Shown: positions 22,270 through 45,634 of the stretch, piece by piece | How the letters are laid out: the number at the start of each line of letters is the position of its first letter | How positions within the stretch are numbered: position 1 is the first letter of the stretch | Sequence record: PZ452602.1 | Length of the DNA: 64,000 nt | Origin: a phage | Reading direction: 5' to 3' (one strand) | Made by a program: the position numbers and the translations under genes | Notes under the pieces: model-generated | The model's database searches: none | Told to the model about the DNA's origin: nothing | Seen by the model: the letters and a program-made list of their open reading frames with translations, nothing else

Positions 22270-25200
22270 ATGGCCGAGATTAAAAGAAAGTTCAGAGCAG
22301 AAGACGGTCTGGACGCAGGTGGCGATAAAATAATCAACGTAGCTTTAGCTGATCGTACCGTAGGAACTGACGGTGTTAACGTTGATTACTTAATTCAAGA
22401 AAACACAGTTCAACAATATGATCCAACTCGTGGATATTTAAAAGATTTTGTAATCATTTATGATAACCGCTTTTGGGCTGCTATAAATGATATTCCAAAA
22501 CCGGCAGGAGCTTTTAATAGCGGGCGCTGGAGAGCATTACGTACAGACGCAAACTGGATTACGGTTTCATCTGGTTCATATCAATTAAAATCCGGTGAAG
22601 CTATTTCGGTTAATACTGCAACTGGAAATGACATCACGTTTACTTTACCATCTTCTCCAATTGATGGAGATACTATCGTTCTCCAAGATATTGGAGGAAA
22701 ACCTGGAGTTAACCAAGTTTTAATTGTAGCTCCAGTACAAAGTATTGTAAACTTTAGAGGTGAACAAGTACGTTCAGTACTAATGACTCATCCAAAGTCA
22801 CAGCTAGTTTTAATTTTTAGTAATCGTCTGTGGCAAATGTATGTTGCTGATTATAGTAGAGAAGCTATAGTTGTAACACCAGCGAATACTTATCAAGCGC
22901 AATCCAACGATTTTATCGTGCGTAGATTTACTTCTGCCGCACCGATAAATATTAAACTTCCAAGATTTGCTAATCATGGAGATATTATTAATTTCGTCGA
23001 TTTAGATAAACTAAATCCACTTTATCATACAATTGTTACTACATACGATGAAACGACTTCAGTACAAGAAGTTGGAACTCATTCCATTGAAGGCCGTACA
23101 TCGATTGACGGTTTCTTGATGTTTGATGATAATGAGAAATTGTGGAGATTGTTTGACGGGGATAGTAAAGCGCGTTTACGCATTATAACGACTAATTCTA
23201 ATATTCGTCCAAACGAAGAAGTTATGGTATTTGGTGCGAATAACGGAACAACCCAAACAATTGAGCTTCAGCTTCCAACTAATATTTCTGTTGGTGATAC
23301 TGTTAAAATTTCCATGAATTACATGAGAAAAGGACAAACAGTTAAAATCAAAGCTGCCGGTGAAGATAAAATTGCTTCTTCAGTTCAATTACTGCAATTC
23401 CCAAAACGCTCAGAATATCCGCCTGAAGCTGAATGGGTTACAGTCCAAGAATTAGTTTTTAACGGTGAAACTAATTATGTTCCAGTTTTACAACTTGCTT
23501 ATATTGAAGATTCTGATGGAAAATATTGGGTTGTACAGCAAAACGTTCCAACTGTCGAAAGAGTAGATTCTTTAAATGATTCTACTAGAGCAAGATTAGG
23601 CGTAATTGCTTTAGCTACACAAGCTCAAGCTAACGTCGATTTAGAAAATTCTCCACAAAAAGAATTAGCAATTACTCCAGAAACATTAGCTAACCGTACT
23701 GCTACTGAAACTCGTAGAGGTATTGCAAGAATAGCAACTACTGCTCAAGTGAATCAGAACACCACATTCTCTTTTGCTGATGACCTTATCATCACTCCTA
23801 AAAAGCTGAATGAAAGAACTGCTACAGAAACTCGCAGAGGTGTCGCAGAAATTGCTACGCAGCAAGAAACTAATACAGGTACTGATGATACTACAATCAT
23901 TACTCCTAAAAAGCTTCAAGCTCGTCAAGGTTCTGAATCATTATCCGGTATTGTAACTTTTGTATCTACTGCAAGTGCTACTCCAGCTTCTAGCCGTGAA
24001 TTAAATGGTACGAATGTTTATAATAAAAACACTAATAATTTAGTTGTTTCACCTAAAGCTTTGGATCAGTATAAAGCTACTCCAACACAGCAAGGTGCAG
24101 TAATTTTAGCAGTTGAAAGTGAAGTAATTGCTGGACAAAGTCAGCAAGGATGGGCAAATGCTGTTGTAACGCCAGAAACGTTACATAAAAAGACATCAAC
24201 TGATGGAAGAATTGGTTTAATTGAAATTGCTACGCAAAGTGAAGTTAATACAGGAACTGATTATACTCGTGCAGTCACTCCTAAAACTTTAAATGACCGT
24301 AGAGCAACTGAAAGTTTAAGTGGTATAGCTGAAATTGCTACACAAGTTGAATTCGACGCAGGCGTCGACGATACTCGTATCTCTACACCCTTAAAAATTA
24401 AAACCAGATTTAATAGTACTGATCGTACTTCTGTTGTTGCTCTATCTGGATTAGTTGAATCAGGAACTCTCTGGGACCATTATACACTTAATATTCTTGA
24501 AGCAAATGAGACACAGCGTGGTACACTTCGTGTAGCTACACAAGTTGAAGCTGCTGCAGGAACATTAGATAATGTTTTAATAACTCCTAAAAAGCTTTTA
24601 GGTACTAAATCTACCGAATCACAAGAAGGTGTTATTAAAGTTGCAACTCAGTCTGAAACTGTGACTGGAGCATCAGCAAATACTGCTGTATCTCCAAAAA
24701 ATTTAAAATGGATTGTGCAGAGTGAACCTACCTGGGCAGCTACTACTGCGGTAAGAGGTTTTGTTAAAACTTCATCTGGTTCAATTACGTTCGTTGGTAA
24801 TGATACAGTCGGTTCTACCCAAGATTTAGAACTGTATGAGAAAAATAGCTATGCAATATCACCATATGAATTAAACCGTGTATTAGCAAATTATTTACCG
24901 TTAAAAGCAAAAGCTGCAGATAGTAATTTATTGGATGGTCTAGATTCATCTCAGTTCATTCGTAGGGATATTGCACAGACGGTTAATGGTTCACTAACCT
25001 TAACCCAACAAACGAATCTGAGTGCCCCTCTTGTATCATCTAGTACTGCTGCGTTTGGTGGTTCAGTTTCGGCAAATAGTACATTAACTATTTCTAATAC
25101 TGGAACGGCAACTCGTCTGATTTTTGAGAAAGGACCTCAAACTGGAACTAACCCAGCGCAGACGATGACTATCAGAGTTTGGGGAAATCAGTTTGGTGGT

Positions 25201-26139
25201 GGGTCAGATACAACACGTTCTACTGTATTTGAAGTTGGTGATGAAACATCTAATCACTTTTATTCTCAACGTAATAAAGCTGGTAATATTACGTTTAGCA
25301 TTAATGGTACTGTGATGCCAATAAATGTTAACGCTTCCGGTTCATTGAATGCGAATGGCGTAGCAACATTTGGTAGTTCAGTTACAGCCAATGGTGAATT
25401 CATTAGCAAGTCTGCAAATGCTTTCAGAGCAATAAACGGTGATTATGGATTCTTTATCAGGAATGATGGCGGCAGCACATATTTTATGCTTACTGCATCT
25501 GGTGATCAGACCGGTGGATTTAATGGATTACGTCCATTATCAATTAATAATCAATCCGGTCAAGTCACAATTGGTGAAAGCTTAATCATTGCCAAAGGTG
25601 CTACTATAAATTCAGGCGGTTTAACTGTTAACTCGAGAATTCGTTCTCAGGGTACTAAAACATCTGATTTATATACCCGTGCGCCAACATCTGATACTGT
25701 AGGATTCTGGTCAATAGATATTAACGATTCAGCCACTTATAACCAGTTCCCAGGTTATTTTAAAATGGTTGAAAAAACTAACGAAGTGACTGGACTTCCG
25801 TACTTAGAACGTGGCGAAGAAGTTAAATCTCCTGGTACACTGACACAGTTTGGTAACACACTTGATTCGCTTTACCAAGATTGGATTACTTATCCAACGA
25901 CACCAGAAGCGCGTACCACTCGCTGGACACGTACATGGCAGAAAACCAAAAACTCTTGGTCAAGTTTTGTTCAGGTATTTGACGGAGGTAACCCTCCTCA
26001 ACCATCTGATATCGGTGCTTTACCATCTGATAATGCTACAATGGGGAATCTTACTATTCGTGATTTCTTGCGAATTGGTAATGTTCGCATTGTTCCTGAC
26101 CCAGTGAATAAAACGGTTAAATTTGAATGGGTTGAATAA
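22270..26139 (+). CDS. 34: long tail fibre proximal subunit gp34
   Basis: 1289 aa; repetitive fibrous motifs (ETRRGIARIAT, RRGVAEIAT, GLIEIATQ); RBS AGGAG. Confidence 0.93.
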   Translation: MAEIKRKFRAEDGLDAGGDKIINVALADRTVGTDGVNVDYLIQENTVQQYDPTRGYLKDFVIIYDNRFWAAINDIPKPAGAFNSGRWRALRTDANWITVSSGSYQLKSGEAISVNTATGNDITFTLPSSPIDGDTIVLQDIGGKPGVNQVLIVAPVQSIVNFRGEQVRSVLMTHPKSQLVLIFSNRLWQMYVADYSREAIVVTPANTYQAQSNDFIVRRFTSAAPINIKLPRFANHGDIINFVDLDKLNPLYHTIVTTYDETTSVQEVGTHSIEGRTSIDGFLMFDDNEKLWRLFDGDSKARLRIITTNSNIRPNEEVMVFGANNGTTQTIELQLPTNISVGDTVKISMNYMRKGQTVKIKAAGEDKIASSVQLLQFPKRSEYPPEAEWVTVQELVFNGETNYVPVLQLAYIEDSDGKYWVVQQNVPTVERVDSLNDSTRARLGVIALATQAQANVDLENSPQKELAITPETLANRTATETRRGIARIATTAQVNQNTTFSFADDLIITPKKLNERTATETRRGVAEIATQQETNTGTDDTTIITPKKLQARQGSESLSGIVTFVSTASATPASSRELNGTNVYNKNTNNLVVSPKALDQYKATPTQQGAVILAVESEVIAGQSQQGWANAVVTPETLHKKTSTDGRIGLIEIATQSEVNTGTDYTRAVTPKTLNDRRATESLSGIAEIATQVEFDAGVDDTRISTPLKIKTRFNSTDRTSVVALSGLVESGTLWDHYTLNILEANETQRGTLRVATQVEAAAGTLDNVLITPKKLLGTKSTESQEGVIKVATQSETVTGASANTAVSPKNLKWIVQSEPTWAATTAVRGFVKTSSGSITFVGNDTVGSTQDLELYEKNSYAISPYELNRVLANYLPLKAKAADSNLLDGLDSSQFIRRDIAQTVNGSLTLTQQTNLSAPLVSSSTAAFGGSVSANSTLTISNTGTATRLIFEKGPQTGTNPAQTMTIRVWGNQFGGGSDTTRSTVFEVGDETSNHFYSQRNKAGNITFSINGTVMPINVNASGSLNANGVATFGSSVTANGEFISKSANAFRAINGDYGFFIRNDGGSTYFMLTASGDQTGGFNGLRPLSINNQSGQVTIGESLIIAKGATINSGGLTVNSRIRSQGTKTSDLYTRAPTSDTVGFWSIDINDSATYNQFPGYFKMVEKTNEVTGLPYLERGEEVKSPGTLTQFGNTLDSLYQDWITYPTTPEARTTRWTRTWQKTKNSWSSFVQVFDGGNPPQPSDIGALPSDNATMGNLTIRDFLRIGNVRIVPDPVNKTVKFEWVE

Positions 26140-26147
26140 GAGGTATT

Positions 26148-27263
26148 ATGGAAAAATTTATGGCAGAGTTTGGACAAGGATATGTCCAAACGCCATTTTT
26201 ATCGGAAAGCAATTCAGTAAGATATAAAATAAGCATAGCGGGTTCTTGCCCGCTTTCTACAGCAGGACCATACGTTAAATTTCAGGATAATCCTGTCGGA
26301 AGTCAAACATTTAGCGCAGGACTTCATTTAAGAGTTTTTGACCCTTCCACCGGAGCATTAGTTGATAGTAAGTCATATGCTTTTTCGACTTCAAATGATA
26401 CAACATCTGCTGCTTTTGTTAGTTTCATGAATTCTTTGACGAATAATCGAATTGTTGCTATATTAACTAACGGAAAGGTTAATTTTCCTCCTGAAGTAGT
26501 ATCTTGGTTAAGAACCGCCGGAACGTCTGCTTTTCCATCTGATTCTATATTGTCAAGATTTGACGTATCATATGCTGCCTTTTATACTTCTTCTAAAAGA
26601 GCTATTGCATTAGAACATGTTAAACTGAGTAATAGAAAAAGCACAGATGATTATCAAACTATTTTAGATGTTGTATTTGACAGTTTAGAAGACGTTGGAG
26701 CTACCGGGTTTCCAAGAAGAACGTATGAAAGCGTTGAGCAATTCATGTCAGCGGTTGGTGGAACTAATAACGAAATTGCGCGTCTACCAACTTCAGCTAC
26801 TATAAGTAAATTATCTGATTATAATTTAATTCCTGGCGATGTTCTTTATCTTAAAGCTCAGTTATATGCTGATGCCGATTTACTTGCTCTTGGAACTACA
26901 AATATATCTATCCGTTTTTATAATGCATCAAATGGATATATTTCCTCGACACAAGCTGAATTTACCGGACAAGCTGGGTCATGGGAATTAAAGGAAGATT
27001 ATGTAGTTGTTCCAGAAAATGCAGTAGGATTTACGATATATGCACAAAGAACTGCTAAAGCTGGCCAAGGTGGCATGAGAAATTTAAGCTTTTCTGAAGT
27101 ATCAAGAAATGGCGGAATTTCAAAACCTGCTGAATTTGGCGTCAACGGTATTCGTGTTAATTATATCTGTGAATCTGCTTCACCTCCAGATATAATGGTA
27201 CTTCCTACACAAGCATCGTCTAAAACTGGTAAAGTGTTTGGACAAGAATTTAGAGAAGTTTAA
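26148..27263 (+). CDS. 35: long tail fibre hinge connector gp35
   Basis: 371 aa, immediately downstream of 34. Confidence 0.85.
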   Translation: MEKFMAEFGQGYVQTPFLSESNSVRYKISIAGSCPLSTAGPYVKFQDNPVGSQTFSAGLHLRVFDPSTGALVDSKSYAFSTSNDTTSAAFVSFMNSLTNNRIVAILTNGKVNFPPEVVSWLRTAGTSAFPSDSILSRFDVSYAAFYTSSKRAIALEHVKLSNRKSTDDYQTILDVVFDSLEDVGATGFPRRTYESVEQFMSAVGGTNNEIARLPTSATISKLSDYNLIPGDVLYLKAQLYADADLLALGTTNISIRFYNASNGYISSTQAEFTGQAGSWELKEDYVVVPENAVGFTIYAQRTAKAGQGGMRNLSFSEVSRNGGISKPAEFGVNGIRVNYICESASPPDIMVLPTQASSKTGKVFGQEFREV

Positions 27264-27267
27264 ATTG

Positions 27268-27292
27268 AGGGAGCCTTCGGGTTCCCTTTTTC
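27268..27292 (+). terminator. Hairpin (UUCG loop) plus U-tract after gene 35
   Basis: GGGAGCC-UUCG-GGUUCCC followed by UUUUUCUUU. Confidence 0.45.
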
Positions 27293-27325: not shown

Positions 27326-27982
27326 ATGGCTGATTTAAAAGTAGGTTCAACAACCGGAGGCTCTGTCATTTGGCATCAAGGAAATTTTCCATTGAATCCA
27401 GCCGGTGACGATGTACTCTATAAATCATTTAAAATATATTCAGAATATAATAAACCACAAGCTGCTGATAACGATTTCGTTTCTAAAGCTAATGGCGGTA
27501 CTTATTTAAATAAAGTAATTTTTAATAAAGGAATGACTGTTCCTGGCGCAGGGTCAGGTGATAATGGTATTTTTGCTGGTCCTGGTGATAGTGCCACGTA
27601 TGATACTACAAATATGGATATTGTTTCGTGGTATGGTATTGGTTTTAAATCATCACAAGGAACAGCAGGTAGAACTGTAGTAATTAACACACGAAATGGA
27701 GATATTAGCTCAAAGGGCGTAATTGAAGCATCACAAATCCGTGTAACTTCGTTATCACCAGTAAATAATTATGACCTTACGCGGAAAGATTATGTTGATG
27801 GAGCAATAAATATTGTTACAGCAAACGCAAACTCTAGGGTATTACGCTCTGGAGACACTATGACAGGAAATTTAACTGCGCCAAACCTTTTTTCACAGAA
27901 TCCTGCATCTCAACCCTCGCATGTTCCACGATTTGACCAAATTGTTATTAAGGATTCTGTTCAAGATTTCGGCTATTATTAA
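27326..27982 (+). CDS. 36: long tail fibre distal connector gp36
   Basis: 218 aa; position between 35 and 37. Confidence 0.85.
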   Translation: MADLKVGSTTGGSVIWHQGNFPLNPAGDDVLYKSFKIYSEYNKPQAADNDFVSKANGGTYLNKVIFNKGMTVPGAGSGDNGIFAGPGDSATYDTTNMDIVSWYGIGFKSSQGTAGRTVVINTRNGDISSKGVIEASQIRVTSLSPVNNYDLTRKDYVDGAINIVTANANSRVLRSGDTMTGNLTAPNLFSQNPASQPSHVPRFDQIVIKDSVQDFGYY

Positions 27983-27990
27983 GAGGACTT

Positions 27991-30900
27991 ATGGCTACTT
28001 TAAAACAAATACAATTTAAAAGAAGCAAAACTGCAGGAGCACGTCCTGCCGCTTCAGTATTAGCCGAAGGTGAATTGGCTATAAACTTAAAAGACCGTGT
28101 ACTTTTTACTAAAGATGACCAAGGAAATATTATTGATCTGGGTTTTGCTAAAGGCGGTAGTATTGACGGGAATGTTATTCATACAGGCAATTATAACCAA
28201 ACTGGCGATTATACTTTAAATGGCGTCTTCACTCAGACTGGTAATTTTAATTTAACTGGTATTGCTCGAGTAACTCGCGATATTATTGCCGCTGGGCAGA
28301 TTATGACTGAAGGCGGAGAACTTATTACAAAAAGTTCAGGTACAGCGCATGTTCGTTTTTTCGATAACAATAGTCGCGAACGCGGAATCATTTATGCCCC
28401 GGCTAATGATGGTTTAACTACACAAGTACTTAATATCAGGGTTCAAGACTACGCCGCTGGTAGCGAAAGCACTTATGCATTTTCAGGCAGTGGACTATTT
28501 ACTTCACCTGAAGTATCAGCATGGAAATCTATTTCGTCTCCACAAATTCTAACCAACAAAGTCATTACTAATAATAAATCTACGGGTGATTATGACATCT
28601 ATTCGATGGCAGACAATGTTCCATTGTCTGAAAGCACTACTGCTATTAATCATCTTCGTGTCATGCGTAATGCCGTTGGTTCTGGTATTTTCCATGAAGT
28701 TAAAGATAATGATGGAATAACTTGGTATGCAGGTGATGGACTTGACACCTATCTTTGGTCATTTACTTGGAGCGGCGGAATTAAATCAAGTCACTCAATT
28801 TCTATTGGTTTAACACCTGGTAATAAAGATTATTCAATATTAGGATCGTCTAGTATCGCTTTAGGAGATAATGATACTGGATTTAAATGGCATCAAGATG
28901 GATATTATTTTAGCGTTAATAATGGAACAAAAACGTTTTTATTTAGTCCTAGCGAAACAACTAGCCTAAGAAAATTTGTAGCTGGATATTCTACTAACGG
29001 AACCGATTTAACTACTCCTCCAACTGAAAATTATGCTCTTGCTACTGTCGTGACATATCACGATAATAACGCGTTTGGAGATGGTCAGACTCTTTTAGGA
29101 TATTATCAAGGCGGTAACTATCATCATTATTTCCGCGGCAAGGGTACTACAAACATTAATACTCACGGCGGTTTGTTAGTTACTCCTGGTAATATTGACG
29201 TTATTGGTGGTTCTGTTAATATTGATGGTCGTAATAATTCTTCTACGCTGATGTTTAGAGGTAACACAACAGGTAGTAGTTCTGTGGATAACATGACAAT
29301 TTCTGTGTGGGGTAATACATTTATTAATCCTAGCGAAGGTAATCGCAAAAATGTCATGGAAATTTCTGATGCAACTAGCTGGATGAGTTATATTCAACGA
29401 ACAACTGCAGGTAAAGTCGAATCGGTTATAAATGGCACCCAGATTGTTAATGAAAACTTGACAGTAGTAAAAAATGCTACATTTGACGGTACAATCAGCG
29501 CAGCCGGTGAAATCGCGACAAATGCTGTAAATGGTCTTCGCATTTGGAATGCAGATTATGGAGCCATTTTTAGACGTTCAGAAGGCAGTCTTCATATTAT
29601 TCCAACTGCTTACGGTGAAGGTAAACACGGCGATATCGGTCCACTTCGCCCGTTTAGTATGGCTTTAGATACTGGTAAAGTTACTATTCCAGATTTACAA
29701 TCAAGTTACAATACGTTCGCAGCAAATGGCTATATTAAATTTGTTGGTCATGGAGCTGGGGCTGGAGGTTATGACATTCAATATGCTCAAGCGGCTCCTA
29801 TTTTCCAGGAAATTGATGATGATGCTGTAAGCAAATATTATCCTATTGTTAAACAGAAGTTTTTAAACAGTAAAGCTGTTTGGTCTTTAGGTACTGAAAT
29901 TAATTCAGGTACATTCGTTATTCATCATCTGAAAGAAGATGGATCACAGGGCCATACATCAAGATTTAATGCTGATGGTACAGTTAATTTCCCCGATAAC
30001 GTTCAGGTCGGCGGCGGTGAAGCTACTATTGCTCGCAATGGTAATATTTTCTCAGATATTTGGAAATCGTTTACTTCTGCGGGAGACACTACAAATATTC
30101 GTGATGCAATAGCTACTCGTGTTGCCAAAGAAGGCGATACGATGACCGGTAGGTTGACTTTATCTGCTGGAAATGATGCCCTTGTTTTAACTGCGGGCGC
30201 TGGCGCTTCATCGCACATCCGTAGTGATGTAGGTGGTACAAATAATTGGTATATAGGCAAAGGCGGCGGCGACAATGGTCTAGGTTTTTACAGTTACATT
30301 ACACAAGGCGGTGTATACATAACAAATAACGGCGAAATAGCGCTTTCTCCTCAAGGACAAGGAACATTTAATTTTAATAGAGACCGCCTTCATATAAACG
30401 GTACACAATGGACTGCGCACCAGGGTGGTGGCTGGGGAAACCAATGGAATCAAGAAGCTCCGATATTTATAGATTTTGGTAATGTTGGTAATGATAGTTA
30501 TTATCCTATTATTAAAGGAAAATCTGGTATTACTAATGAAGGATACATATCTGGCGTTGATTTTGGTATGCGACGCATTACTAATAACTGGGCGCAAGGT
30601 ATTATTCGTGTAGGTAACCAGGAAAATGGTTCTGATCCACAAGCTATCTATGAATTTCATCACAATGGAGTTCTGCATGTTCCTAACATGGTTAAAACTG
30701 GAGCAAGATTATCAGCTGGCGGTGGTGACCCGGTGTGGCAAGGCGCATGCGTTGTTATTGGTGATAATGATACTGGATTAGTTCATGGTGGTGATGGACG
30801 AATTAATATGGTTGCAAATGGAGTTCATATTGCTTCGTGGTCTTCATCTTATCATTCTCATCCAGGCCTTTGGGATTCAAACGGAGCTTTGTGGACAGAA

Positions 30901-31320
30901 GTTGGCAAAGCAATTATTTCTCATGGTCATTTAGTTCAGGCGAATGACAGCTATTCAACGTTTGTCCGTGATGTTTATGTCCGCTCTGATATTCGTGTTA
31001 AAAAAGACCTCGTTAAATTTGAAAATGCTTCTGAGAAGCTTTCTAAAATTAACGGTTACACTTATATGCAGAAGCGAGGCCTAGATGAAGAAGGCAATCA
31101 GAAATGGGAACCTAACGCCGGTTTGATAGCTCAAGAAGTTCAAGCTATTTTGCCTGAATTAGTTGAAGGTGACCCTGATGGCGAAGCTTTACTTCGTTTG
31201 AACTATAACGGTGTAATTGGTTTAAATACAGCTGCAATCAATGAGCATACTGCAGAAATTGCGGAACTTAAATCAGAAATTGAAGAACTTAAAGCATTAG
31301 TTAAATCATTGTTAAAATAA
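27991..31320 (+). CDS. 37: long tail fibre distal subunit gp37 with C-terminal intramolecular-chaperone-like domain
   Basis: 1109 aa; C-terminal about 110 aa (DIRVKKDL...[10 protein letters not shown]...[15 protein letters not shown]...coiled coil) resembles auto-cleaved chaperone domains of other phage fibres. Confidence 0.9.
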
Positions 31321-31324
31321 TAAG

Positions 31325-31340
31325 AGGGGCTTCGGCCCCT
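31325..31340 (+). other. Stable RNA hairpin AGGGGC-UUCG-GCCCCU between genes 37 and 38
   Basis: Perfect stem with UUCG tetraloop, not followed by a U-tract; lies just 5' of the gene 38 RBS. Confidence 0.5.
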
Positions 31341-31351
31341 TGGAGGTTTAT

Positions 31352-32128
31352 ATGGCAGTAACAGGACCGTGGGTAGGATCGTCTGCAGTAGTTAATACAG
31401 GACAAAATTGGATGTCCAGCGCGGCCCAACGATTAAGAATGGGTACTCCATTTTGGATGAGTAATATGATAGGTCGATCTGTTGAAGTAATTCATACACT
31501 TGGAGCAGATCATAACTTCAATGGTCAATGGTTCCGAGATAGATGTTTTGAGGCAGGTAGTGCACCTATAGTGTTTAATATCACTGGAGATTTAGTATCA
31601 TATTCTAAAGATGTTCCTTTATTCTTCATGTATGGAGATACACCGAATGAATATGTTCAGTTGAATATACACGGCGTAACGATGTATGGACGTGGCGGTA
31701 ATGGCGGTAGCAATAGTCCTGGTTCAGCTGGAGGTCATTGTATTCAAAACGATATTGGTGGGAGACTAAGAATTAATAATGGTGGAGCTATTGCTGGAGG
31801 TGGCGGCGGTGGCGGCGGCGGATATTATTCTCCTTTTTCACAAATGAGATTGACTTTTGGAGGTGGCGGCGGGCGTCCGTTTGGCGCACCGGGCGGATCT
31901 ATTGATATGCAATCAGGAGCAACTGCTGGTACTATTTCTGCGCCTGGCGCAGGGTCTGTGAACGGTATCTATAGCGGCGGTGGCGGTGGCGAAGTTGGCT
32001 CCGCAGGAGGTAGATGTAATATTCGTGGTCAAGGATCTGAATACGATGGCGGAGCTGCTGGTTATGCCGTCATAGGGTCTACACCGACATGGCAAAACGT
32101 TGGAGCAATATATGGTCCAAGAGTATAA
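31352..32128 (+). CDS. 38: T2-type receptor-recognising adhesin gp38 with glycine-rich motifs
   Basis: Protein from [11 protein letters not shown] with poly-Gly islands (GGGGGGGGG, GGGGG, GGGGG); RBS GGAGG 5 nt upstream of ATG at 31352; the track start at 31340 is a TTG. Confidence 0.85.
31796..31822 (+). repeat. GGN triplet repeat encoding a 9-residue glycine run in gp38
   Basis: ggaggtggcggcggtggcggcggcgga; GC-rich in an AT-rich genome. Confidence 0.7.
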
Positions 32129-32158
32129 TTTGAATAAATATCCTTAAAAGGAGGGTCT

Positions 32159-32815
32159 ATGGCAGCACCTAGAATATCATTTTCGCCCTCTGATATTCTG
32201 TTGGGTGTTCTAGATCGCTTGTTCAAAGATAACGCTACCGGGAAAGTTCTTGCTTCCCGGGTAGCTGTCGTAATTCTTTTATTTATGATGGCGATTGTTT
32301 GGTATAGGGGAGATAGTTTCTTTGAGTACTATAAGCAATCAAAGTATGAAACATACAGTGAAATTATTGAAAAGGAAAGAAATGCACGCTTTGAATCTGT
32401 CGCCCTGGAACAACTCCAGATAGTTCATATATCATCTGAGGCAGACTTTAGTGCGGTGTATTCTTTCCGCCCTAAAAACTTAAACTATTTTGTTGATATT
32501 ATAGCATACGAAGGAAGATTACCTTCAACAATAACTGAAAAATCACTTGGAGGATATCCTGTTGATAAAACTATGGATGAATATACAGTTCATTTAAATG
32601 GACGTCATTATTATTCCAACTCAAAATTTGCTTTTTTACCAACTAAAAAGCCTACTCCCGAAATAAACTACATGTACAGTTGTCCATATTTTAATTTGGA
32701 TAATATCTATGCTGGAACGATAACCATGTACTGGTATAGAAATGATCATATAAGTAATGACCGCCTTGAATCAATATGTGCTCAGGCGGCCAGAATATTA
32801 GGAAGGGCTAAATAA
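32159..32815 (+). CDS. t: holin t
   Basis: 218 aa; sequence MAAPRISFSPSDIL... with a single N-terminal TM matches recalled T4 holin T. Confidence 0.9.
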   Translation: MAAPRISFSPSDILLGVLDRLFKDNATGKVLASRVAVVILLFMMAIVWYRGDSFFEYYKQSKYETYSEIIEKERNARFESVALEQLQIVHISSEADFSAVYSFRPKNLNYFVDIIAYEGRLPSTITEKSLGGYPVDKTMDEYTVHLNGRHYYSNSKFAFLPTKKPTPEINYMYSCPYFNLDNIYAGTITMYWYRNDHISNDRLESICAQAARILGRAK

Positions 32816-43718: not shown

Positions 43719-43748
43719 ATTATACCACATCCTTGTGGTAAAGTAAAC
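43719..43748 (-). promoter_or_regulatory. T4-type early promoter (rII operon)
   Basis: GTTTAC (43743-43748) overlapping gene 39 stop, 17 nt, GTATAAT. Confidence 0.55.
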
Positions 43749-45565
43749 TACTGGCTCATCCATTCTTTACGAAGGTCAGCATTATCTCCCATGAGCATTT
43801 CAAAAAGCTCTTTCCAGTTCTCAGGAAGTTTAACAACATCATATACTGGATTTTGAATCATCTCACGATATTCAGATTTTTCCAAAGAGCCAAGTCCCTT
43901 AATATAACGGATGCTATGTTTAGGTAGAGCATCTTTAGCACTCTCATATTCAGCGACTGTATAAAACCATTCTTGTTTTTTACCGACCTGAGCGATGATT
44001 ACAGGAGTTTTGACAAAGCGAATTCGTCCTTGCTCAAACAGTTCTGGCCAATTACTAAAAAATCCAAGAAGAGAAGGATAAATGCTTCCTAAACCATCAT
44101 GGTCAGCATCGGTCATAATAGCAATATTATGATAATTCAAGTTTTCAGCTTTTTCACCAAGAACTAATCCAGTGATTGCGCAAATATCAAATAGTTCTTT
44201 GTTTTTAAGCATATCGGCATATGACATACCCCAGCTATTAAGAACTTTACCGCGCAATGGATAACCACCATGAAGTTCTTTATCACGAACATCAATAAGA
44301 TATCCGATAGCAGAATCACCCTCAGTCAAGAAAAGAGTAGTATCAGCATCTTTACCACAAAGATTCGCTTTAATATGTTTATGAACCTTAGCTTTAGAAG
44401 CCTTTTTAGCTGCTTTAGTTTCTGCTGCTTTTTCTGCCGCTAATTTACGAGCCAAGGCAGCTTCAATAATTGGCATTAAAATTGCTTCATTGTTTAAAAT
44501 AGCGCGTGAAATCTTTTTAGCATCAAGTTGAATATGACTACGAATTTCACCAAATGGAGAAGTCAAACGCTCTTTAGTTTGAGAATCAAATCGCATGTTT
44601 TTCATATCACGAACAAACATAACGATAGTCAAACATTCTTTAACACGTGCTTTAGTTACATCAATTTTGAACTTACGTTTGATTTGTGGAATAAGGTCTT
44701 CACAAATATCATCCATAACACAGTCAATGTGATGGCCACCATTCTTAGTATGAATATTATTGACGTACGTCAACTGACGAAAACCATCCGGTGAACGACC
44801 AACCGCAATAGAACAATTTTCTTGTTCTTGAACGATAGCATGTTCATCATACTGTCGTGCGTATTTCTTAAAATTGCCCTGAACCTTTTTACCATTAAAG
44901 GTAAATTGAATATCAGGATAAACAACAGCAAGTGTCTGGAGACGATCTAATGTAATGTCAAGATAAACTTGGGACAGCTCATTAGTTTCAAATGACATAA
45001 AATCAGGAATGAAAGTAACACGAGTTCCTTTCCATTTTCCAGGAATATCTTCCCATGATTTATTTTCCATGCCATTTGAACAACGAACTACAATATTATT
45101 TTGACCATCACCAGTTTCACCAACAAACATCACAGAAAAAATGTTTGTCAAACTAGAACCAACACCGTTCATACCGCCAGTGACGCGTTCTTTATCATCA
45201 CCGAAGTTACCACCTGCTTTTGGAATAGTCCATGCGGCAACAGGACCAGGAATTTCTTCACCGGTAGGTGTTTTAACCATCGCTTGTGGAATACCGCGAC
45301 CGTTATCTTCAACTGTTACTTGATTGTTTTTAATAGTAACATTAATTTTATTTGCGAATTTAAACTTAGTACGAATACCTTCATCTACTGAGTTATCGAT
45401 AATTTCATCAATAAGCTTAACAAGACCAGGTACATACTGAACACTTTCCCATTTACCAAACAGAAAGCGCTCATGCATTTCATTAGCAGAAGAGCCAATA
45501 TACATGCCGCTACGCTTTTTGATATGTTCAATATCGCTCAGAATTTTAATTTCATTCTTAATCAT
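43748..45565 (-). CDS. 39: topoisomerase II large subunit gp39, unsplit
   Basis: About 605 aa continuous ORF with GHKL ATPase (EDNGRGIP) and TOPRIM (LTEGDSA) motifs; contains both the gp39 and gp60 portions in one frame. Confidence 0.9.
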   Translation of the reverse strand: MIKNEIKILSDIEHIKKRSGMYIGSSANEMHERFLFGKWESVQYVPGLVKLIDEIIDNSVDEGIRTKFKFANKINVTIKNNQVTVEDNGRGIPQAMVKTPTGEEIPGPVAAWTIPKAGGNFGDDKERVTGGMNGVGSSLTNIFSVMFVGETGDGQNNIVVRCSNGMENKSWEDIPGKWKGTRVTFIPDFMSFETNELSQVYLDITLDRLQTLAVVYPDIQFTFNGKKVQGNFKKYARQYDEHAIVQEQENCSIAVGRSPDGFRQLTYVNNIHTKNGGHHIDCVMDDICEDLIPQIKRKFKIDVTKARVKECLTIVMFVRDMKNMRFDSQTKERLTSPFGEIRSHIQLDAKKISRAILNNEAILMPIIEAALARKLAAEKAAETKAAKKASKAKVHKHIKANLCGKDADTTLFLTEGDSAIGYLIDVRDKELHGGYPLRGKVLNSWGMSYADMLKNKELFDICAITGLVLGEKAENLNYHNIAIMTDADHDGLGSIYPSLLGFFSNWPELFEQGRIRFVKTPVIIAQVGKKQEWFYTVAEYESAKDALPKHSIRYIKGLGSLEKSEYREMIQNPVYDVVKLPENWKELFEMLMGDNADLRKEWMSQ

Positions 45566-45634
45566 CACTTATCCTCGTTTGGTTTCGGGAATATTATACT
45601 CCGGTAATCATAAAGCTAAAGGCCCGAAGGCCTT

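Follow-up and report, generated by a model that had tools for sequence, protein, structure and literature searches.

In T-even phages, self-cleaving chaperone domains of gp37 and polyglycine adhesins of the gp38 type have been known from genetics since the 1980s and from structures since 2018. In the gp37-gp38 tip of phage S16 (PDB 6F45; Dunne et al. 2018), the chaperone comprises the last 113 residues of a trimeric gp37 and cuts itself off at DLNVS^SDRRIKK, uncovering the docking surface for gp38 (PMC7917993). A single gp38 is attached there by three tryptophans that dock onto, or insert in, the gp37 tip, and it carries a polyglycine sandwich, for which the crystal structure shows ten polyglycine-II helices (PMC6851490). 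For the GP38 family, PMC3157838 describes four hypervariable segments (HVS) along with five glycine-rich motifs. The chaperone belongs with the endosialidase and MYRF domains, whose catalytic pair is a Ser-Lys dyad with five-residue spacing (PMC3742443). Passages of PMC3157838 report that amber mutants in T6 gene 38 yield morphologically normal, non-adsorbing virions, and cite Drexler 1986 for proteolytic processing of T2 gp37. Phage T4 is organized differently: the tip that binds the receptor is formed by gp37's own C-terminal domain, and its gp38 is an unrelated assembly chaperone of very different sequence which is not present in the fibre (PMC6851490). The adhesin type of gp38 is the commoner of the two (PMC6851490).

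The window analysed here is a stretch of 64,000 nucleotides of phage DNA (record PZ452602.1). With a probability of about 0.9, we take its genes 37 and 38 (Table 1) to encode the distal tip of the long tail fibre in a Tequatrovirus of T2/T6/S16 type, with a self-cleaving gp37 chaperone, a gp38 adhesin and Tsx as predicted receptor. None of the observations speaks against this reading. Such a tip module is ordinary, known biology and involves no new mechanism. Family membership of both proteins, conserved catalytic and docking residues, the gp38 fold, identity to phage RB27 and T6-type loops are established. Judged by sequence, the gp37 chaperone and gp38 are both textbook components identical to those of RB27, and the sole new element is the allele of the gp37 shaft. 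The module marks the phage as a T2/T6-type, not a T4-type, Tequatrovirus, and its main value lies in practical annotation.

The open reading frames agree exactly with the protein lengths and positions given in an initial annotation of this DNA. Gene 38 lies directly 3' of the chaperone-ending g37 (stop at 31320, ATG at 31352), and the order g34-g35-g36-g37-g38-t is that of the T6, T2, RB27 and FL23 records. T4 shares the genome positions of g37 and g38 as well as the proximal fibre genes g34, g35 and g36. A mechanical ORF call would start g38 at a TTG at 31340 and yield 262 residues; the 258-residue frame is the one annotated in RB27, 4E10 and FL23. The same initial annotation had proposed a T2-type arrangement with gp38 as receptor binder, for which adhesin-family matches, the modelled fold and the T2/T6 gene order all argue.

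Table 1. Features of the fibre-tip module; positions refer to the window, residues to the respective protein.
Feature	Position	Strand	Basis
Gene 37 (g37)	27991-31320	+	ORF; product 1109 aa
g37 mature part (predicted), residues 1-998: distal half-fibre shaft and gp38 docking tip, ending ...FVRDVYVR998	27991..30984	+	ORF; S16 alignment
Gp34_trimer-like domain in gp37, residues 449-556	29335..29658	+	Pfam PF21446, E 4.7e-8
Two His-x-His motifs, H955-S-H957 and H978-G-H980, just upstream of the gp37 tip	30853..30930	+	Motif scan
Intramolecular chaperone, Peptidase_S74 type, residues 999-1109 (111 aa)	30985..31317	+	PF13884 and 6F45_A matches
Heptad-repeat helix at chaperone end, about residues 1075-1109	31213-31317	+	Heptad pattern
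C(UUCG)G tetraloop hairpin between g37 stop and g38 ribosome-binding site	31324..31341	+	Fold -13.8 kcal/mol, z-score -2.3
Gene 38 (g38)	31352-32128	+	ORF from ATG; product 258 aa; GGAGG ribosome-binding site at 31342-31346
g38 N-terminal attachment domain, residues 1-40, with W7, W20, W35	31352..31471	+	PF21721 Gp38_N, E 1.6e-22
g38 beta-helix and polyglycine-sandwich specificity domain, residues 41-258	31472..32128	+	PF05268, E 1.3e-70
HVS1, gp38 approximately 120-126	31709-31729	+	
HVS2, gp38 approximately 158-169	31823-31858	+	
HVS3, gp38 approximately 183-208	31898-31975	+	
HVS4, gp38 approximately 221-232	32012-32047	+	

The Pfam matches of gp38 are solely to two adhesin families, PF05268 GP38 (238.1 bits, profile positions 1-218 of 218) and PF21721 Gp38_N (79.6 bits, positions 1-40 of 40), with a cut-off of 25 in both cases. 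Searched against PDB sequences, it matches gp38 of PP01 (9V85, E 6.9e-81) and of S16 (6F45_D, E 2.2e-53). Its AF2 model has a mean pLDDT of 88.3, rising above 90 over residues ~50-258, and a Foldseek comparison of this model with the PDB returned 9V85_C (E 7e-26, TM 0.88, rmsd 2.4 A) and 6F45_D (E 2e-21) with no significant match beyond these two. As modelled, the gp38 fold is a beta-helix plus polyglycine-II sandwich. The receptor-binding domain of PP01 gp38 is the best structural match and its beta-helix part is 99% identical, whereas its loops are only 0-25% identical and PP01 binds to OmpC of E. coli O157 (PMC12892980). Similarly, S16 differs in binding Salmonella OmpC, and its loops share 0-23% identity with those of the window. 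All five phages aligned (the window, RB27, T6, T2 and 4E10) share the presumed docking residues W7, W20 and W35; across 79 homologues W7 is invariant and W20 nearly so (at least 90%).

Variation among the 79 homologues is concentrated between the glycine motifs, where the initial annotation had expected host range to vary: neither HVS2 nor HVS4 contains an invariant column, and HVS3 contains G199 alone. The alignment of inter-glycine loops which it had suggested was carried out with M1, FL08 and FL18 as OmpA references in place of K3 and Ox2, and loop identities span 0 to 100% among the reference phages. From HVS1 to HVS4, identity is 100, 92, 81 and 100% to T6 and 100, 100, 88 and 92% to FL23; over HVS2-4 it is at most 31% to T2, M1, FL08, PP01 and S16. 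In HVS3-4, identity rises to 58-69% for Ac3 and FL18, whose loops are of another type. The loops of the window are of T6 type, neither T2-type nor M1-type (OmpA). Further, residues 113-258, which make up the specificity domain, share 95% identity with T6 and with FL23/FL44, and the entire gp38 is 93.8% identical to that of FL23 and 100% identical to that of RB27. Because the loops resemble those of T6 and FL23, which are Tsx-dependent phages, and are unlike those of T2, M1, FL08, PP01 and S16, we predict the E. coli nucleoside channel Tsx as the receptor. Dependence on Tsx is described for FL23 and FL44, in the case of FL23 on deletion mutants (PMC12032242). RB27, T6 and RB5 are grouped with T6-like, Tsx-recognising adhesins in PMC3157838, where the assignment of RB27 comes from a sentence of the text.

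Given the same architecture, the phage might nevertheless use a receptor other than Tsx, or a further one besides it, for example OmpA or LPS as phage PST does. The specificity of gp38 can be shifted or broadened by a handful of point changes in HVS2 and HVS3. Between residues 113 and 258 the protein departs from T6 in 8 places; S163 in HVS2 is one of them, and HVS3 holds five (D185, A192, A197, A200, S208). Against this stand the identity of the protein to RB27 gp38, placed among Tsx users by the sentence just mentioned, the complete identity of HVS2 with that of the experimentally Tsx-dependent FL23, and the absence of the substitutions (T6 Q167R, M168I, G208I) with which PST has broadened a T6-type specificity. 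We therefore consider another receptor rather unlikely and keep Tsx as the predicted one.

The other half of the module is the C-terminus of gp37. The Pfam Peptidase_S74 match (PF13884, cut-off 22) covers residues 999-1058 of 1109 with 48.5 bits and E 1.1e-12. Residues 918-1109 align end to end with the C-terminus of S16 gp37 (6F45_A, E 3.5e-44), of which 918-998 correspond to the S16 tip; the chaperone fragment by itself retains E 7e-35. The chaperone is 100% identical in amino acids to that of RB27, 58% to that of S16 and 28-34% to that of T6, whose gp37 differs also in length (994 aa) and is 29% identical overall. Beyond the T-even group the similarity becomes distant (MYRF structures 7DC3, E 0.019, and 8JOV, E 0.044). 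The start motif S999-D-I-R-V-K1004 keeps the Ser-Lys dyad intact at five-residue spacing, and the same S-D-x-R-x-K is found in T6 and T2 gp37 as well as in the endosialidase/MYRF family (PF13884). In the alignments, S999 falls opposite the residue that directly follows the S16 cut, and opposite the MYRF motif, where structure 7DC3 carries Ala in its place. Self-cleavage of gp37 is most likely to occur between R998 and S999, since the S16 site DLNVS^SDRRIKK aligns with DVYVR^SDIRVKK; the P1 residue is Ser in S16 and Arg here. In the last ~35 residues, 8/10 a/d positions of a heptad pattern are hydrophobic, and a C-terminal helix is likewise present in endosialidase/MYRF domains. A single-sequence AF2 model of residues 985-1109 reaches a mean pLDDT of 51.2, with this helix as its only confident part. 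The segment of about 110 residues resembling a self-cleaving chaperone and including a coiled coil, which was noticed at the outset, was recovered as a domain of 111 residues from S999.

A probable course of tip assembly can be proposed by analogy with homologues. Synthesised as a precursor of 1109 residues, gp37 would trimerise with its last 111 residues, the Peptidase_S74 chaperone, nucleating and checking the folding of the fibre. After trimer folding, the S999/K1004 dyad would cleave R998-S999 and the chaperone would depart, uncovering a flat hydrophobic tip (...DVYVR). One copy of gp38 would then dock on this tip through W7, W20 and W35 of its N-terminal helical bundle. Its C-terminal half would form the polyglycine-II sandwich, where glycine runs serve as scaffold and HVS1-4 as the receptor-binding face; with T6-type loops, adsorption to Tsx is expected. 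Four of these points are carried over from homologues: the cleavage of gp37, the 3:1 ratio, the occurrence of gp38 in virions and the binding to Tsx. Endosialidase and MYRF domains also end trimeric beta-helical fibres. There, however, release simply finishes a tailspike, whereas here the released domain would uncover the docking site of a separate adhesin. The predicted receptor and the predicted mature end of gp37 (R998) may be useful for host-range prediction, phage-therapy cocktails and fibre engineering.

The C-terminal 111 residues might instead be kept as a structural cap, with gp38 being merely an assembly factor as in T4. In favour of this, the gp38 chaperone of T4 does not occur in virions, and T6-type gp38 still figures in some database entries as a "distal long tail fiber assembly catalyst". 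Yet the catalytic Ser-Lys motif is intact, and the homologous S16 domain (58% identical) autocleaves, its crystal containing gp38 on the cleaved tip (PMC7917993, PMC6851490). The T2 processing and T6 amber phenotype reported in the passages of PMC3157838 cited above point in the same direction. As the Pfam matches of gp38 include no T4-type chaperone and its sequence is unlike that of T4 gp38 (PMC6851490), we rejected a T4-type role for it and hold the retained cap to be very improbable. The preferred reading remains that of a cleaved gp37 with gp38 as the tip adhesin.

Glycine makes up 23.6% of gp38 and 33.6% of residues 116-258. The three poly-glycine islands of the initial annotation are confirmed as a count: exactly three runs reach five or more glycines (149-157, a G9 at nt 31796-31822; 170-174; 209-213). 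As an architecture, three is an undercount of the five motifs, or ten polyglycine-II helices, of the family. There are eight GG pairs besides the long runs, and glycine motifs lie around residues 113-119, 127-128, 144-157, 170-182, 209-220 and 233-237. Across the 79 homologues 44 columns are invariant, among them glycines 113-118, 127-128, 145-156, 170-181 and 199; because most of these columns are glycines of the runs, the runs are not due to chance. A slippage-prone contingency locus, with phase variation through the 27-nt GGN codon run at 31796-31822, was rejected as very improbable: this run is imperfect (GGA GGT GGC GGC GGT GGC GGC GGC GGA), in keeping with the mixed GGT/GGA/GGC/GGG glycine codons of the gene, run lengths and positions are invariant or nearly so among the 79 homologues, two crystal structures show the runs as structural polyglycine-II helices, and variation falls between them and not within.

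Comparison with other phage genomes points to a composite origin of the module. At its 5' end (27991-28975), the DNA is 98-100% identical to 4E10. For the following part (28976-31010), no match among 50,697 phage records exceeds 91.9% nucleotide identity at full coverage; vB_Eco_CP reaches 93.8% over 94% coverage. From 31012 to 32244, a tract that takes in the greater part of the chaperone, the whole of g38 and the beginning of t, not a single mismatch separates it from RB27 (KM607000.1), with which it also shares gene order and spacing. By these identities the module is a recombinational mosaic of a 4E10-like 5' third of g37, a divergent middle and an RB27-identical tract from ~31012. RB27 differs in the shaft, with a gp37 of 1104 residues against 1109 here and blocks of only 53-57% nucleotide identity (29426-29575 and 30176-30325). 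The nearest phage for the whole gp37 is 4E10 with 94.7% amino acid identity, followed by 87.5% for RB27, and an exact-sequence look-up in public assemblies and a gene collection did not find this gp37.

The RB27-identical tract has its left junction ~9 codons past the conserved cleavage motif. We tentatively suggest, while considering it doubtful, that the shaft (28976-31010) is an unsampled recombinant allele joined to a chaperone and adhesin cassette of RB27 type, with the SDxRxK region as the recombination joint. If so, the self-cleaving domain and its matching adhesin would move between fibres as one unit, and the SDxRxK region would form a third class of joint beside the already proposed His boxes and glycine motifs.

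Upstream of the junction, the gp37 tip (~930-998) is not that of RB27: amino acid identity is 78-94% per 50-residue bin over 901-1000, and nucleotide identity 79-92% over 30776-31075. For this reason, compatibility with the RB27-type gp38 is assumed from the conserved last ~10 residues of mature gp37. Nowhere does gp37 diverge more from RB27 and 4E10 than in the His-x-His region (79-82% nucleotide identity to both over 30626-30925), which falls partly inside a segment of gp37 (~951-962), carrying H955-S-H957, opposite which S16 gp37 has a 12-residue gap.

Between the two genes, the tetraloop hairpin is not a terminator of g37-to-g38 transcription, since no T-run follows it on the + strand. Consensus scans around the module gave 24 promoter-like sites against 20.5 in shuffled sequences and 6 terminator-like sites against 4.2, without enrichment in either case. 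Scanned over its full length against Rfam with gathering thresholds, the window gave no match, and ARAGORN found no tRNA.

Within the shaft, an apparent internal duplication (one copy ending in YYPIVKQK, the other running from APIFIDFGN to YYPIIKGK) was discarded, as self-BLAST detected no significant repeat at E below 1e-3. A relationship to another fibre protein is seen in the Gp34_trimer-like domain, which matches gp34 structures 4UXE, 5NXF and 9X3R at E about 1e-14. Residues 408-566 of gp37 align with 938-1101 of gp34 from the same window (36% identity, E 2e-19), and by this similarity the domain is a paralogue of the C-terminal region of that gp34.

On the basis of its sequence, the g37-g38 module belongs to the S16/T2/T6 group of long-tail-fibre tips and would work in the same way. 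The observation of the initial annotation is confirmed and its T2-type reading is supported. All sequence-testable defining features of both protein families (GP38 adhesin and Peptidase_S74 chaperone) were found; cleavage, location in the virion and receptor binding are predictions. The module is unlike that of T4, in which receptor binding falls to gp37 and the chaperone gp38 is unrelated (PMC6851490). The finding is textbook biology, and the parts highlighted by the annotation are identical in sequence to RB27.

The window is part of a Tequatrovirus (T-even) genome, and many genomes of this genus are ~96-97% identical to the flanking 20 kb. The start of g37 and the stop of g38 had been placed exactly. 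The true g38 start codon is ATG at 31352, with GGAGG shortly upstream at 31342-31346, and the same 258-aa frame is annotated in RB27, 4E10 and FL23. A mechanically assigned TTG start at 31340 sits within the intercistronic hairpin. Further downstream, the large topoisomerase subunit is encoded by a single ORF, which by its size appears to be the unsplit form of the gene; in T4 it is divided between genes 39 and 60. An unsplit gene would fit a Tequatrovirus backbone other than that of T4. Residues 58-127 of the hinge protein gp35 match Pfam PF15711 ILEI (interleukin-like EMT inducer / FAM3 fold; E 6.2e-9, 36.7 bits, cut-off 27).

Features of the locus (positions in the window)
Feature	Position	Size or property	Basis or remark
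g34	22270-26139	1289 aa	ORF list
gp34 residues 938-1101	25081-25572		paralogous to gp37 residues 408-566
g35	26148-27263		ORF list
C(UUCG)G tetraloop hairpin	27267-27288	-15.1 kcal/mol	directly past g35; T-run next
g36	27326-27982		ORF list; Pfam Phage_T4_gp36
g37	27991-31320	1109 aa	ORF list
gp37 residues 408-566	29212-29688		paralogous to gp34 residues 938-1101
gp37 residues 955-980	30853-30930		HSH and HGH motifs
C(UUCG)G tetraloop hairpin	31324-31341	-13.8 kcal/mol	g37-g38 spacer
g38	31352-32128	258 aa	ORF list
holin t	32159-32815		ORF list; Pfam Phage_holin_T
asiA, motA, g52	after holin t	opposite strand	ORF list
large topoisomerase subunit	43748-45568 (-)	606 aa	single ORF

The hairpin past g35 is terminator-like because a T-run comes after it. 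The window holds 32 copies of CTTCGG; the expectation from shuffled sequences is 13.1 +/- 3.6, and none of them reached 32. Stable CUUCGG hairpins were reportedly described in T4 intercistronic regions by Tuerk et al. in 1988, and the excess and the hairpins seen here fit them.

The chaperone-like C-terminus proposed for gp37 is confirmed by a match of residues 999-1058 to Pfam PF13884 (Peptidase_S74, "chaperone of endosialidase"; E 1.1e-12, 48.5 bits, cut-off 22) and by alignment of residues 918-1109, with no large gap, to the C-terminal part of Salmonella phage S16 gp37 that was used as a construct (PDB 6F45, E 3.5e-44; E 7e-35 for the last 120 residues alone). In S16 gp37, the intramolecular chaperone comprises the last 113 residues, and autocleavage between both serines of DLNVS^SDRRIKK uncovers the gp38 docking surface (PMC7917993). 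The sequence DVYVR^SDIRVKK aligns with this site, and therefore a cut between R998 and S999 is predicted, which would yield a mature protein of 998 aa and a released fragment of 111 aa. The catalytic dyad of Peptidase_S74 consists of Ser and Lys five residues on (PMC3742443); its counterparts are S999 and K1004. The same motif is present in gp37 of T6 and T2, whose chaperones are only ~30% identical to that of the window, and a 1986 report described T2 gp37 as proteolytically processed (Drexler et al., J Mol Biol 191:267, as cited in PMC3157838). The coiled coil expected to follow fits the last ~35 residues, which show a heptad pattern (hydrophobic at 8/10 a/d positions) and form the only confident helix in an otherwise poor single-sequence AF2 model of the chaperone.

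The adhesin itself matches PF05268 (GP38 adhesin, 1.3e-70) and PF21721 (Gp38_N, 1.6e-22), as well as both solved gp38 structures, PP01 9V85 (E 6.9e-81) and S16 6F45_D (E 2.2e-53). Its AF2 model, built with 79 homologues, has mean pLDDT of 88.3 and exceeds 90 from residue ~50 on; low confidence is confined to the N-terminal attachment domain, whose ordering requires gp37. In a Foldseek search of PDB, the model retrieved 9V85_C (TM 0.88, rmsd 2.4 A) and 6F45_D (E 2e-21), and beyond gp38 of PP01 and S16 all other matches had E >3. Three tryptophans of gp38 plug into the gp37 tip (PMC6851490), and they are present as W7, W20 and W35. Glycine makes up 33.6% of residues 116-258, with runs of at least five residues at 149-157, 170-174 and 209-213 and eight more GG pairs. 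The three glycine islands of the initial annotation thus exist as long runs, but undercount the published architecture of five glycine-rich motifs with four hypervariable segments (PMC3157838) or, by the crystal structure, of ten polyglycine-II helices (PMC6851490). Variation was anticipated between the islands, and the alignment of 79 homologues bears this out: invariant columns are mostly these glycines, whereas the intervening segments are variable.

Identity (%) of gp38 hypervariable segments (HVS1-4, loops between glycine motifs) in the window to those of reference phages
Phage	Receptor	HVS1	HVS2	HVS3	HVS4
T6	Tsx	100	92	81	100
FL23	Tsx	100	100	88	92
T2	FadL/OmpF	43	0	15	8
M1	OmpA	100	17	31	25
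FL08	OmpA	14	17	23	8
PP01	OmpC	14	0	19	25
S16	OmpC	14	0	23	8

The loop alignment suggested by the annotation groups gp38 with T6 and FL23 among these references. Ac3 and FL18 (OmpA) represent a different loop type, with HVS1 in common, 58-69% identity in HVS3-4 and only 17-25% in HVS2. The whole protein is 100% identical to gp38 of RB27, which PMC3157838 places among phages with T6-like adhesins, all said there to recognise Tsx on E. coli; FL23 and FL44 are tsx-dependent (PMC12032242). None of the three substitutions that broaden the range of PST (T6 Q167R, M168I, G208I) is present. Identity to RB27, T6/FL23-like loops and lack of PST substitutions together lead us to predict Tsx as the receptor. 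Since a few loop changes can matter, further receptors retain a small probability.

None of 50,697 phage records matches the module closely over its full length (4E10 comes first with 93.6% nucleotide identity), and the exact gp37 protein has no record in the public gene collection (amino acid identity 94.7% to 4E10, 87.5% to RB27, 35% to T2, 29% to T6). Positions 27991-28975 are 98-100% identical to 4E10 in 150-nt bins. The following part, 28976-31010, diverges from all records (best full-coverage match vB_EcoM_F1, 91.9%; vB_Eco_CP, 93.8% over 94% coverage), and 31012-32244 has zero mismatches to RB27. The left edge of this last tract lies ~9 codons past that for S999, whose first base is 30985. 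Exchange at conserved motifs has been described for the g37-g38 locus (Tetart et al. 1998, as cited in PMC3157838); the mosaic is of this described type, and only the allele is new.

Within gp37, the segment paralogous to gp34 (36% identity, E 2e-19) is shared with the C-terminal trimerisation region of that protein and also matches Pfam Gp34_trimer. The two His-x-His motifs, HSH and HGH, lie in the most divergent stretch, right before the tip; S16 gp37 lacks a 12-residue segment holding the first of them. They may equal the "His boxes" or metal sites of other T-even gp37 proteins.

One entry of the public collection, P0072 (303 aa, labelled E. coli), is a chimeric ORF: its residues 1-155 correspond to the N-terminus of gp38 with the first glycine motifs, and these are joined to a gp37-like tip and Peptidase_S74 chaperone (...NDVYIRSDRRLKIN...). 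Either assembly or recombination produced an artefact, or the ORF reflects a real illegitimate exchange in the poly-Gly-coding run.
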